Source: Trueperaceae bacterium
Lineage (GTDB): Bacteria; Deinococcota; Deinococci; Deinococcales; Trueperaceae
Length of the DNA: 64,000 bases
Direction of reading: 5' to 3'
NCBI GenBank assembly: GCA_965215565.1
Contig: CBDCDZ010000004.1
Span: 3,296,001-3,360,000 of the forward strand
The notes below the pieces were generated by a model that saw only the letters and a list, made by a program, of their open reading frames with translations, did not search any database and was not told where the DNA came from. Numbering within the stretch: position 1 is the first letter of the stretch; every line of letters begins with the position of its first letter. Position numbers and translations under genes: made by a program. Shown one piece after another: positions 11,745-17,410 of this stretch.

Positions 11745-12622
11745 TAGACCTCTTGCAAAAGTCATGAATCGAGGTTGGCGTTGATGAGCCCGGCGATGAG
11801 GTTGAAGCGTAAGGAGAAGCGCTTGCGCCTATTACGGTAAGTTTCTTTGAGGATACGCCAGATCTTGAGCGAACGAATCACATGTTCTACCGCGATGCGG
11901 AAGCGTCCTAGAGCGCGGTTGTGTTGTTTGGCTTCATCACTAAGCTCACCGCCCTTAGGCTTTTTGACGGGCAAGCAGGTCTGTGGATGACGCGTTGCTA
12001 AGCCTTGATAGCCGCTATCAGCGACGTACCAGACTTCAGGTTTACACCTAGGGGCTGTTTCTTTGAACAGCTTGTAGTCGTGCTTGGGACCTTTGGCGTG
12101 GGCTGTTGAAAGAATCCTCGTGTCACTTGCGTCTACCAGCACTTGACTCTTCAGCGTGTGGCGCTGCTTTTTTCCGCTAAAGTAACGTCGCTCCTTTTTT
12201 TGGGCTTCTCAATAGGCGTCTCGGTGACATCAATCAAGACGACAGTCCACTCAATCTCTTCCACCTCGCGCCTTTTAGGTAAGCTGAACTTGCCTGAAGC
12301 GATGAGTACGTCTTCAATCCGTGTGATGATCCGGTTCGCTGTGGACTCGTGCAGTCCGTAACTCGCCGCAATATGAAACTGCGTCCTGTATTCGCGCCAG
12401 TACGACAGCGCTAAGAGCAGTTTGTCCTCCAAGCTGAGTTTGCTTGTGCGTCCCGCCTTCTTCTTCTGCCGTTCAGCTTCTCCTAGAACGTCGAGCATCT
12501 GTTTGAACACACCAGGCTTGACGCCTGTCAAACGTCTGAACCCTTCTGGCGCTAGTCCTCTAATCTCTTCGTATCGCATAGCCTTACTTTGCAGCTATAT
12601 GTCTACTTTTGCAAGAGGTCTA
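11745..12622 (-). mobile_element. Insertion sequence, IS5 family (ISL2-like), about 878 bp
   Basis: Perfect 18-bp terminal inverted repeats TAGACCTCTTGCAAAAGT / ACTTTTGCAAGAGGTCTA (outer TA may be the target duplication) enclosing a split transposase. Confidence 0.93.
11762..12579 (-). CDS. Transposase, two ORFs joined by a probable -1 frameshift
   Basis: ORF A HTH (YWREYRT, IDVTE); -1 shift at the A7 run (12195-12201) gives KERRYFSGKKQRHTLKSQVL into ORF B with ADSGYQG and RIAVEHV. Confidence 0.88.
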
Positions 12623-15359: not shown

Positions 15360-16289
15360 ATGAACGACGTGGACGAAGCTGCGCTGCCGCAAGGACTCTC
15401 CCTTCGTAAAAAAGGGGAGAGCTTAGAGACGGTCTCCTCGAAAGCCATCGAGGTGCAGCTTCTGGCGGCGGGGCAGGGCGTAGAGATTCTTGAAGGAAAA
15501 TTGGGTAAGGGCAAGCGAATAACGCTCGTCCCTTCGGGTAAAGCGCTAGAGACATACTATATTTTGGAGGGACAGTTGCGTAGCGATAGCGATGCTGCCG
15601 CCAGGTCTATAGCTGTGGATGCGGGAGATTACCTCGTGACGGAGTCGCTAGCAGAATCTTACACCCTACTCGCGCAAACTGACGTTCGCTTTCTCTACTT
15701 CACCTCACAACCCACCTTTCACGAGATAAGCGAAGAGTTGGGCGATCTGATGCGGCTCGCCGTCGAAGTCGAAGTCAAGGACGGTTACACCGCCGAGCAT
15801 TGCAGGCGGTTACAGGTGCTCTCCTACGCGGCGGGACAGGAACTCGGCTTGGCGCAAGACAGGCTCTACCTTTTGGATTACGGCGCATATTTACACGATG
15901 TAGGCAAAGTCAAAGTGCCCGCCAACATCCTGCGCAAGCCCTCCACGCTGACCCAAGCGGAATGGGCGCTGATGAAAAAGCACCCTACGTTCGGGCGCGA
16001 ACTGCTCGAGAAAACCTACCTTAAAAGAGCCGGCGTCATCGTCGAACAGCATCACGAGCGTTTAGACGGAAGTGGCTACCCCCACGCACTCTCCGGGGAG
16101 GACGTCCTCATCGAGTCCTATATCGTCGCCGTCGCAGACGCCTACGACGCGATGACCACAGACCGCCCCTACCGCCGCGCCGCGCCGCCAGAGCAAGCGT
16201 TTATCGAACTTAGGAAATACGCCGGGATATACTACCCGAAAGAGGTCGTGCGCGCCTTTATTTCGGTTGTGATGAGAAAAGCGCTGTAA
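15360..16289 (+). CDS. Cupin-like N-terminal domain fused to HD-GYP phosphodiesterase (predicted c-di-GMP hydrolase)
   Basis: LHDVGK, HHERLDGSGYP, VADAYDAMTTDRPYR; N-terminal E.YYILEG.L...GDYL beta-barrel signature; start ATG 15360 or GTG 15348. Confidence 0.9.
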   Translation: MNDVDEAALPQGLSLRKKGESLETVSSKAIEVQLLAAGQGVEILEGKLGKGKRITLVPSGKALETYYILEGQLRSDSDAAARSIAVDAGDYLVTESLAESYTLLAQTDVRFLYFTSQPTFHEISEELGDLMRLAVEVEVKDGYTAEHCRRLQVLSYAAGQELGLAQDRLYLLDYGAYLHDVGKVKVPANILRKPSTLTQAEWALMKKHPTFGRELLEKTYLKRAGVIVEQHHERLDGSGYPHALSGEDVLIESYIVAVADAYDAMTTDRPYRRAAPPEQAFIELRKYAGIYYPKEVVRAFISVVMRKAL

Positions 16290-16776
16290 TACCAAAGTGA
16301 TTTAAGGGTGTCACAAAGTGACAGCCTTAAACGCTCTATGAGCGTAACTTCTAACGTCCTCACATTGTGACACCTCCTTTTCAGTCTGGTATAACACTAA
16401 CAATCTGCGAACACTCAACCAAAACAAACTGGACGCTGTTACGGTTCTGCGTGACGCTTCTCCACCCTCTGAGCGCTCGGGCGGTACGCCGAAGCGTAGA
16501 CTTTTTTGGTACTTGCGTACTCCCTCCTAACTATTGAAAGCGGTATTTCTATACGCTGACGCCGCACAGTTCAGCCGTAAAGTATGAGAACGCTTTTTAC
16601 GTTAATAACTTCATAAGGCCCGCTCCAATCGGATAAGAAGAATCTCACGCACTATTAAAAAAGCTTCTATGAGTTCTCAGTGTGCTCGATGTCACTCGGT
16701 TTCATCTTTGTGAAAAGTCCGCCACGGAGTATTTCAGTACCCATGATACGTTGTGTTTCGAGGTTGATAAGCCTCA

Positions 16777-16867
16777 TCGGAAGCGACGACTTCTGTCCCG
16801 CAAGGAGCTTTGCTAAAGGCTCTTCTGGGCGCTTGGGACAGAAGAAGCTAGTAGCGCAACCGGCCGG
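16777..16867 (+). ncRNA. c-di-GMP-II riboswitch aptamer
   Basis: CGG-AAGC-GACGA-CTTCTGTCC...CTGGGCGCTTG-GGACAGAAG-AAGCTAGTAGCGCAACCGGCCG fits the class II consensus (GGAA.C...GGGCRCUUG...GYUAGUAGYGCAACCGRCC); P1, P2, P3 and pseudoknot pairings all form. Confidence 0.88.
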
Positions 16868-16935
16868 GACGCTCTTCCGGACAACTTGAAAAGCTTTGGA
16901 AAACCGGAGCACGCCATATCAGGGAGGATATGAAA

Positions 16936-17067
16936 ATGAAAAAGTCACTCATCAAAGCGTTGGTTCTTGCTCTTACTCTTACTGCGTTTGGTACAGTTTC
17001 GACAGCGAGCGCTGCCGAAGGTTCGGACAAGGCTCCGTCAGTTCAAAAGTTTAGAGTCAACTGCTAA
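16936..17067 (+). CDS. Secreted micro-peptide precursor 1 (43 aa)
   Basis: GGGAGG 8 nt upstream; MKKSLIKALVLALTLTAFGTVSTASAAEGSDKAPSVQKFRVNC*; Sec signal ending in ASA; paralog immediately downstream. Confidence 0.85.
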   Translation: MKKSLIKALVLALTLTAFGTVSTASAAEGSDKAPSVQKFRVNC

Positions 17068-17087
17068 AGATTAAAAGTTCACCAACG

Positions 17088-17120
17088 AACTCCTCTACGA
17101 AGACGTAGAGGAGTTTTCTC
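17088..17120 (+). terminator. Intrinsic terminator after peptide 1
   Basis: 12-bp perfect stem AACTCCTCTACG-AAGA-CGTAGAGGAGTT followed by a T-rich tail. Confidence 0.85.
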
Positions 17121-17204
17121 TTACCTCTTTTTTGCTGTGAAGTTTTCCACATTGTGGTTGACGCCCTGCAGACGAAATTTAGGGGTAAAAGAGAGAGGGT
17201 ACAC

Positions 17205-17330
17205 ATGAAGAAACTCACAAGCTTAACGCTCGTTTTGATGCTGGCTATCTGCGGTTTTTCTGTGGCGTCTGCGGGTGCTGCATCTTCAGACGGTGAGCCG
17301 TCAACTCAGAAGTACAGAGTCAACCGTTAA
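17205..17330 (+). CDS. Secreted micro-peptide precursor 2 (41 aa)
   Basis: GAGGGT RBS; MKKLTSLTLVLMLAICGFSVASAGAASSDGEPSTQKYRVNR*; same architecture and C-terminal motif as peptide 1. Confidence 0.85.
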   Translation: MKKLTSLTLVLMLAICGFSVASAGAASSDGEPSTQKYRVNR

Positions 17331-17351
17331 GGCTGTAAGCAACATACTCGG

Positions 17352-17383
17352 GCGTCTCCGCGCAGAAGCGGAGGCGCTTTTTT
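17352..17383 (+). terminator. Intrinsic terminator after peptide 2
   Basis: GCGTCTCCGC-GCAGAA-GCGGAGGCGC then TTTTTT. Confidence 0.85.
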
Positions 17384-17410
17384 ATGTTCTGTCTAATTCA
17401 TACTCCAAGG

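Follow-up and report, generated by a model that had tools for sequence, protein, structure and literature searches.

In the window, a stretch of 64,000 nucleotides from a genome of the family Trueperaceae (G000:C4:3296001-3360000, G000 being the genome that carries it), a gene for a predicted cyclic di-guanosine monophosphate (c-di-GMP) phosphodiesterase with a cupin and an HD-GYP domain is followed by a class II c-di-GMP riboswitch aptamer and two genes for short, putatively secreted peptides. We observed that this cassette, an enzyme gene with a small partner gene adjacent to it, is conserved and specific to the cupin–HD-GYP family. The short C-terminal tail of the partner is, as far as the sequences tell, its sole lasting feature and follows the family pattern aromatic-x-hydrophobic-[N/S]-x. 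A signalling loop built from these parts is plausible, and we lean modestly towards the reading that the tail peptide regulates the neighbouring phosphodiesterase through the cupin and so closes a feedback loop.

The cupin profile matched 34 of 128 Trueperaceae genomes and 25 of 401 Bacillota genomes, and none of 181 genomes from four other families of the same phylum as Trueperaceae. From the family set, 61 regions were taken and 52 were tested; the remaining nine, dropped as contig ends or fragments, held a partner in five cases and showed none in four. A fixed rule, by which a long partner is secreted and ends in a β-hairpin, Asp-Pro and 4–9 residues, assigned long partners to 23 of the 52 loci, micro-peptides to 15, and neither to 14. 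Re-inspection of the 14 rule-negative loci left seven with nothing and gained seven partners, namely three leaderless 14-codon open reading frames (ORFs), two divergent repeat peptides, one upstream long partner and one fused remnant. An adjacent small partner gene was thereby present at 45 of the 52 family loci (38 by the fixed rule and seven on re-inspection). At the locus L191, the HD-GYP ORF is truncated and continues, in the same frame, as the C-terminal portion of a long partner, probably a deletion remnant. The rule gave a partner at 20 of 22 Bacillota loci (19 long, one micro-peptide of 35 residues, two without), a set from which five weak matches, one duplicate and loci with short flanks had been left out. 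A metagenome scan with one Bacillota cupin returned four loci only.

As controls, we used 75 non-cupin HD-GYP loci, 64 of them with enough flank. Long partners were found at none of the 64, and the five loose peptide calls all lacked the tail; no Rfam match occurred at the 17 control loci scanned. The six other HD-GYP genes of G000 had no long partner and a single loose peptide call. The initial annotation had led one to expect adjacent peptides or a riboswitch beside homologous genes as well, and this was borne out: the pairing recurs in two phyla and is absent from the non-cupin controls. G000 itself has five full-length cupin–HD-GYP paralogues, the window enzyme included. Downstream of one of the others lie a class II aptamer with an insertion and a peptide with the C-terminus FRVNR; a second precedes a peptide ending (GFKISN)x2, and a third, whose operon begins with a class II aptamer, precedes a 105-residue lipoprotein ending DP-FRFSD. 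The last paralogue has no partner. Genome-wide, the tail motif was present in four of 44 candidate secreted micro-ORFs, and all four lie beside a cupin–HD-GYP gene. The six oligopeptide-binding proteins of G000 were set aside as uninformative, since such proteins are present in 11 of 14 control genomes too.

The partners took several forms: secreted proteins of 90–240 residues ending in Asp-Pro and a short tail, pro-peptides of 41–49 residues, tandem 6-mer repeats, and leaderless peptides of 14 residues. The leaderless ORFs, from three genomes of one genus, end in VRVNA, FRVNG and FKVTK, and two divergently transcribed secreted peptides carry (GFTVST)x2 and (GFTVTN)x2. The tandem 6-mer repeats (L147, L135, L180) suggest an active unit of 5–6 residues. 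A tail profile built solely from 27 distinct long-partner tails placed FRVNC, the C-terminus of the first window peptide, above all 2544 background C-termini and YRVNR, that of the second, in the top 0.6%. The 16 aligned micro-peptides all lay within the top 4% and the three leaderless forms within the top 1.5%. In the enzyme tree, a quick tree with Shimodaira–Hasegawa-like approximate likelihood-ratio (SH-aLRT) support only and a midpoint rather than a tested root, micro-peptide and long-partner loci were interleaved. For example, L228 (Bacillota, 35 residues, ending KISIT) clustered with L230 and L231 (118 residues, ending DP-IHILW) at 99% support. Because short and long partners interleave in this way, the tree suggests that the long partner was repeatedly reduced to its tail.

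The modelled structure of one long partner was disordered past Asp-Pro, in the tail (residues 101–105, predicted local distance difference test score (pLDDT) of 49), and the fold search of this model found nothing at Z ≥ 5, with a best value of 3.2. Atlas look-alikes of one long partner belonged to unnamed Bacillota clusters. Many long partners contain a lipobox-like cysteine and would thus be membrane-tethered. Pfam and NCBIfam contained no named family for the peptides or the long partners, and the peptide profile search gave 17 proteins, none named beyond ‘hypothetical protein’.

The features of the window locus are as follows; all four circuit parts (enzyme, aptamer, the two peptide ORFs and the hairpins) are on the + strand.

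15360–16289 (+): predicted cupin–HD-GYP c-di-GMP phosphodiesterase gene, 309 residues (Pfam, model, alignment)
15396–15728 (+): N-terminal cupin β-barrel, approximately residues 13–123, candidate peptide sensor (fold search of the model)
15738–16286 (+): HD-GYP domain (invariant residues, fold, PmGH alignment)
16286–16394 (no strand assigned): hairpin repeat resembling a miniature inverted-repeat transposable element (MITE), just after the HD-GYP stop, no part of the circuit
16633–16769 (+): conserved stretch upstream of the peptide gene; it contains TGaTACGTT, resembling an extended -10 element, at 16744–16752
16770–16873 (+): class II c-di-GMP aptamer (Rfam covariance models, covariation)
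16874–16935 (+): predicted expression platform, CUCUUCC-type anti-Shine-Dalgarno and GGAGG at 16923–16927 (folding models)
16936–17067 (+): pro-peptide 1, 43 residues, with a Sec-like signal peptide, polar spacer and C-terminal FRVNC (ORF, Shine-Dalgarno, conservation)
17087–17116 (+): 13-bp hairpin after peptide 1, terminator or mRNA stabiliser (z -3.7, imperfect U-tract)
17205–17330 (+): pro-peptide 2, 41 residues, paralogue of peptide 1, C-terminal YRVNR (ORF, conservation)
17350–17384 (+): intrinsic terminator facing the convergent aroQ (dehydroquinase) gene (hairpin 17350–17379, z -4.3, U-tract)

The 309-residue enzyme matched Pfam HD_5 with E = 2.8e-28, its own Pfam cupin matches being sub-threshold (E 0.08–0.2), and neither a signal peptide nor a membrane segment was seen in it. 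The AlphaFold2 model, calculated from an alignment of 26 homologues, had a mean pLDDT of 90.4. Residues 13–123 of the model aligned to cupins with Z of 11–13, the best match being ectoine synthase (5by5, Z 13.2, root-mean-square deviation 2.6, 109 aligned residues). Residues 127–309 matched the HD-GYP domain of PmGH with Z 24.2, and PmGH, PA4781 and DvhD together were matched at Z 23–24. The intact cupin-like HD-GYP gene of the initial annotation was thus confirmed. No Pfam or NCBIfam match to TPR was obtained, and the model consists of the cupin barrel and HD-GYP.

Residues H147, H179, D180, H208, H231, H232 and D260 are invariant in the 26 homologues, and the enzyme displays the HD-GYP signature, with the HD pair, HHExxDGxGYP, the aspartate and the metal-binding residues all present. 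Tyr143 occupies the position of PmGH E185 (the PmGH numbering has an offset of 6, set from residues named in the accessible text of Galperin and Chou, 10.1101/2021.11.05.467447), so the acidic residue of the trinuclear HD-GYP subclass is absent. The segment R269-P-Y-R272 aligns to PmGH R314/K317 and preserves RxY[K/R], described in the same source as the guanine-specificity motif of HD-GYP domains, in which Gln or Asn shifts the preference toward cGAMP. The tyrosine at the E185 position points to a binuclear enzyme with pGpG as the likely product. From these residues, the enzyme is probably active, binuclear and c-di-GMP-specific, stopping at pGpG. Within the cupin barrel, E42, E64, G71 and F120 are conserved among the 26 homologues. 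Metal-dependent cupin enzymes have conserved histidine metal ligands in the barrel. No barrel column held His in the majority of the 26 sequences, and E64 alone of the usual ligands is invariant; without conserved histidines, the barrel fits a ligand-binding rather than a metal-enzyme type.

Searching 1.84 billion representatives (50% clustering) with the cupin profile gave 294 matches, many of about 300 residues. An HD/HD_5 domain was present in 25 of 34 scanned matches, which had been picked for unusual length, and some of these 25 proteins were fused to GAF, GGDEF or TPR. TPR-GGDEF-cupin-HD-GYP fusions were noted in L185, L190, P0028 and P0023; in L185 and L190, a class II aptamer comes next and after it a long partner ending DP-FRFNR.

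The aptamer at 16770–16873 was the sole Rfam match in the window (RF03169, 43.5 bits, cut-off 40), and the canonical model RF01786 scored 43.8 bits on it, under its cut-off of 53.5. The 3′ junction GCAACCG is that of the canonical class. The window reads GCGCAACCG versus the variant consensus GCGAGACCG and fits the canonical class II consensus; the label c-di-GMP-II-GAG was rejected on sequence, as GAG is not in the 3′ junction. A hairpin of 20 nt is inserted at 16802–16821, in the loop before the pseudoknot, and the aptamers of L145 and of two congeneric genomes, L118 and L119, which served as comparison for the window locus, have longer insertions at the same place. Across 13 cassette aptamers, 93.9% of cells were paired, compared with 30–39% in slid controls, and two-sided changes were seen in 13 of 19 pairs (13 loci), with the structure taken from the window's own alignment, a choice that somewhat favours this structure. 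The initial annotation's class II aptamer, and its placement directly before the peptide gene, are therefore supported by score, position and covariation; the aptamer ends about 60 nt ahead of the first peptide gene.

Elsewhere in the family, Rfam placed a class II aptamer between enzyme and partner at nine of 48 scanned loci, and three more were aligned by hand; the riboswitch is facultative, being found at 10 of the 15 micro-peptide loci. In Bacillota, a class I aptamer lies directly ahead of the partner at nine of 22 loci, so unrelated riboswitch classes hold the same position in the two phyla (class I in Bacillota, class II in the family). At L229:337-573, tandem class I aptamers were found opposite the enzyme strand, before a convergent 79-residue secreted ORF without an Asp-Pro tail. 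We also observed a conserved two-hairpin leader RNA in the 5′ leaders of the peptide genes of genus g24 (L123:3615-3675, L184, L192, L196, L201), where it takes the place of the class II aptamer directly behind a TTGACG-type promoter. Its first loop is AANGCCAGAG, two-sided changes occur in seven of 17 pairs, a loop–loop pairing is possible, and no Rfam match appeared even with E allowed up to 1; we regard it as a possible regulatory RNA of unknown type. The leader pattern matched 12 times in 128 family genomes. Five matches are cassette loci, and the other seven, without the two-hairpin leader context, look like chance.

The first peptide gene is the next same-strand gene after the enzyme, at a distance of 646 nt. 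The conserved region with the extended -10-like element (read by eye; the consensus promoter scan did not call it) precedes the aptamer, which makes it probable that peptides and enzyme are transcribed separately, the peptides from their own promoter region and with no shared operon. In folding models, masking the 3′ strand of helix P1 lowered the opening of the ribosome site by at least 0.1 in six of 11 loci and raised it by that much in none; in the window, the opening fell from 0.80 to 0.36. This amounts to a weak prediction of a translational OFF switch at high c-di-GMP.

For peptide 1, the ATG at 16936 is 8 nt from GGAGG, and that at 16930 only 2 nt. Both peptide ORFs have Shine-Dalgarno sites, Sec-like leaders and downstream hairpins. 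The predicted leaders of the 41–43-residue peptides, assigned by eye and a hydrophobicity rule, consist of a basic N-terminus, a hydrophobic core and A-x-A. The two paralogous signal-peptide micro-ORFs called in the initial annotation were upheld, with that heuristic assignment of the leaders, and both are kept in L118 and L119. Synonymous and non-synonymous codon changes numbered 8/3 for peptide 1 and 11/6 for peptide 2 versus L118 (mostly synonymous), and 14/10 and 6/13, respectively, versus L119 (mixed). The claim of a terminator behind each micro-ORF stood for 17350–17379, with its U-tract, and only partly for 17087–17116, which is kept in L118 and L119 but has an imperfect U-tract and was unlisted by the terminator scan. 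A TTGACG element at 17158–17163, ahead of peptide 2, is kept in both congeneric genomes, and the 29-nt segment that comes next in those genomes is absent from the window; peptide 2 may be served by a separate promoter, independent of the riboswitch.

We regard the gene pairing, the conservation of the tail, the catalytic signature and the aptamer structure as established, and from these we infer every step of the loop. The pro-peptide would be exported by Sec, trimmed to a peptide of 5–6 residues and taken up again; the cupin of the enzyme encoded next to it would then bind this peptide, and binding would change the conversion of c-di-GMP to pGpG. The c-di-GMP riboswitch would in turn feed back on peptide synthesis, and the loop would be closed because c-di-GMP controls that synthesis. 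Should the switch be OFF at high c-di-GMP and the peptide activate the enzyme, in the way BDSF does with RpfR, the population would be committed to a low-c-di-GMP state; an inhibitory peptide would instead yield a homeostatic loop. The interpretation offered in the initial annotation is upheld in part, with the effect of the peptide on the phosphodiesterase and any action between cells as its putative steps.

Several points weigh against this proposal. To our knowledge, no cupin is known as a receptor for a peptide signal. Seven of the 52 family loci are without any partner, three micro-peptides (L129, L140, L201) fall outside the tail profile, and the Bacillota tails LRILGF, LFIMSD and IHILW depart from the family motif. 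In the profile–profile comparison of short and long partners, only the signal peptides aligned, at a probability of 25%, and the homology of the two forms therefore rests on tail and gene position. The motif rules were written after the test loci had been viewed, loci from related genomes cannot count as independent, and the controls were drawn from other phyla. As for the direction of the switch, a shorter mask changed the window opening only from 0.79 to 0.73, the L118 opening rose, and class II switches of C. difficile are reported as ON in the accessible text of PMC13724677.

Other explanations of the cassette must be weighed too. The peptide could be a real c-di-GMP-controlled signal received by another protein, for instance a cyclase, a TPR protein or a membrane kinase; the phosphodiesterase would then be a downstream component inherited along with it, and the cupin would sense something else. 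The fusions of TPR, GGDEF, cupin and HD-GYP in P0028, L185 and L190 adjoin the same partner, so TPR could be the peptide binder in these proteins, and G000 has 33 GGDEF matches. We nevertheless consider another receptor unlikely, since no third gene recurs across the loci whose neighbours were listed, and the pair survives changes of order, orientation and phylum with the enzyme as the only constant neighbour. More doubtful still is an action of the tail on the enzyme inside the producer, before or instead of export, as cell-autonomous feedback or as a secretion monitor in which export removes the regulator. The tandem repeats fit the release of several copies by processing, and leaderless peptides can still be secreted signals (PMC10518010, accessible text). 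Such an internal action would nevertheless accord with the tail kept in the leaderless 14-residue forms, with the membrane tether expected for many long partners from their lipobox-like cysteine, and with the lack of a dedicated protease or importer gene recurrent in the loci inspected. The leaderless variants suggest a cytoplasmic target and are compatible with cell-to-cell as well as cell-autonomous action.

We judge it improbable that the secreted products serve as structural material or effectors under c-di-GMP control, such as matrix, an amyloid-like strand or an antimicrobial peptide, encoded beside a local phosphodiesterase. Matrix components would not be expected to have leaderless forms or to pair strictly with a single enzyme family, and the mature length varies from about 12 to more than 200 residues while the tail alone is kept, even though the tail pattern is alternating and β-strand-like and class II aptamers elsewhere in G000 stand before secreted proteins of normal length. 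A chance gathering of small ORFs and a riboswitch behind an HD-GYP gene is very improbable. In its favour, some paralogues are without a partner, and the genes in the window are separated by a mobile repeat. Against it stand the enrichment over controls, the codon-level conservation and the recurrence in two phyla; the locus census and the tail profile have largely refuted it.

Returning to regulation of the enzyme by the tail, we also propose, with some hesitation and a little short of even confidence, that the cassette represents a new class of peptide communication. A cupin receptor would directly control a phosphodiesterase, independently recruited class I and II riboswitches would feed back, and an ancestral secreted or lipid-anchored precursor would free its tail at Asp-Pro, having been reduced repeatedly to Phr-like, multi-copy and leaderless forms. 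If true, this would provide a c-di-GMP enzyme controlled by a peptide, a cupin that receives a peptide signal and a compact feedback loop built on a riboswitch; an orphan sensor family (the 294 representatives) would gain a ligand, and an unnamed family of secreted proteins a role. The candidate ligands are short (5–14 residues), and the leaderless form makes a two-gene system conceivable.

The window locus is flanked by a trmB-like gene and a hypothetical gene on one side and the convergent aroQ on the other; the family search of the flanks covered aroQ and the methyltransferase only. The genes after aroQ are presumably aroB, aroK and aroC, and a split ORF pair at 11762–12579 (-) we take to be transposase-like, both judged from translations. 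The GC content of the stretch is 51.7% versus 58.1% for the chromosome, and that of the HD-GYP gene alone is 56.3%, so the AT-richness comes mostly from intergenic DNA and the short peptide genes. Horizontal acquisition, as a reading of the AT-rich island in the initial annotation, was therefore rejected, the more so as the locus is syntenic in L118 and L119. The strong hairpin behind the HD-GYP stop was likewise discarded as a circuit part, being the MITE-like repeat. The chromosome holds eight near-full copies and one partial copy of it, none occurs at the orthologous site in L118 or L119, and one contig skips it at a TA..TA joint.

Further loci in G000 are of note. At C4:1212102-1216240, a second kind of peptide/HD-GYP cluster has a secreted 42-residue peptide whose C-terminus is GRSNVWAG; divergent to it are a protease-like gene carrying GGRSNVWA repeats and a 676-residue HD-GYP protein with a TPR-like N-terminus. 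A direct-repeat element (GGCAACC, 11-nt period) at C4:1216034 (+), 982631 (-) and 4392726 (+) lies ahead of two different micro-peptide genes and at a third site, and is a possible common operator. Other class II aptamers, including a tandem pair, were found at C4:2483145-2484498, 941494-941580 and 3833873-3833956, and are followed by secreted proteins, among them a subtilase-like ORF with SAWSGG repeats and a 749-residue lipoprotein heading the third cupin–HD-GYP operon; some of the following ORFs we take to be pilin/TasA-like. At C4:2853747-2855466 (-), three adjoining secreted ORFs carry GG(D/M/S)MT repeats, one of them being just 60 residues long.

The initial annotation knew of no described system with this layout, and our literature search, with subscription papers largely outside its scope, gave no description of the cassette. 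The HD-GYP survey (10.1101/2021.11.05.467447) uses neither ‘cupin’ nor ‘peptide’ in its main text. In its accessible text, the 2022 census of c-di-GMP inputs (PMC8846402) counts two quorum-sensing receptors, BDSF-RpfR and AI-2-dCACHE, as backed by direct evidence and names no peptide ligand.

A close analogy in logic is with the RRNPP(A) systems (Rap-Phr, NprR-NprX, PlcR-PapR, AimR-AimP), which share with our cassette a small Sec-type pro-peptide gene adjoining that of a 250–500-residue cytoplasmic protein, conservation of the last few residues, duplicated peptides and tandem repeats. As given in the accessible text of PMC10075063, RRNPP(A) members have a Sec pro-peptide of 10–100 residues and an adjacent receptor of 250–500 residues with TPR repeats; the window cassette, with pro-peptides of 41–43 residues (Sec leaders by heuristic) and a 309-residue neighbour, agrees in size, secretion and adjacency. 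Because the enzyme has no TPR, the Rap-Phr/RRNPP likeness drawn in the initial annotation is limited to logic. The RRNPP(A) receptor is built of TPRs, whereas our candidate receptor is a cupin barrel, and the output there is transcription or Spo0F dephosphorylation, compared with predicted c-di-GMP hydrolysis here. Unlike RRNPP(A), the cassette has a riboswitch-controlled peptide gene, precursors of 90–240 residues with a hairpin and Asp-Pro, and a distribution that extends outside Bacillota. By analogy, it would operate as Rap-Phr does, yet outside the RRNPP group.

RpfR is encoded next to the gene for its signal BDSF, a fatty acid, and has a PAS9 sensor and an enzyme of the GGDEF-EAL type. 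In Burkholderia, this autoinducer binds the cytoplasmic sensor domain of the phosphodiesterase and lowers c-di-GMP (PMC8846402, accessible text). Our cassette would resemble it in an autoinducer acting on the sensor domain of a phosphodiesterase, and differs in that RpfR/BDSF has no peptide and no riboswitch. The small proteins of C. difficile, as far as described in the accessible text of PMC13724677, share genes gated by c-di-GMP riboswitches, there of class I, and differ in being membrane-associated sporulation regulators with no adjacent HD-GYP partner reported. RopB-LCP has in common with the leaderless forms that the peptides are very short, lack a signal sequence and are encoded together with their receptor, here a candidate one; RopB, however, is an RRNPP-type transcription factor (PMC10518010, accessible text), and the leaderless forms here are derived variants from three genomes of one genus. 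Finally, PmGH (4MCW), PA4781 (4R8Z) and DvhD (9RBZ) have the fold, metal ligands, GYP and RxY[K/R] in common with the window enzyme, which differs from them in its N-terminal sensor, a cupin.

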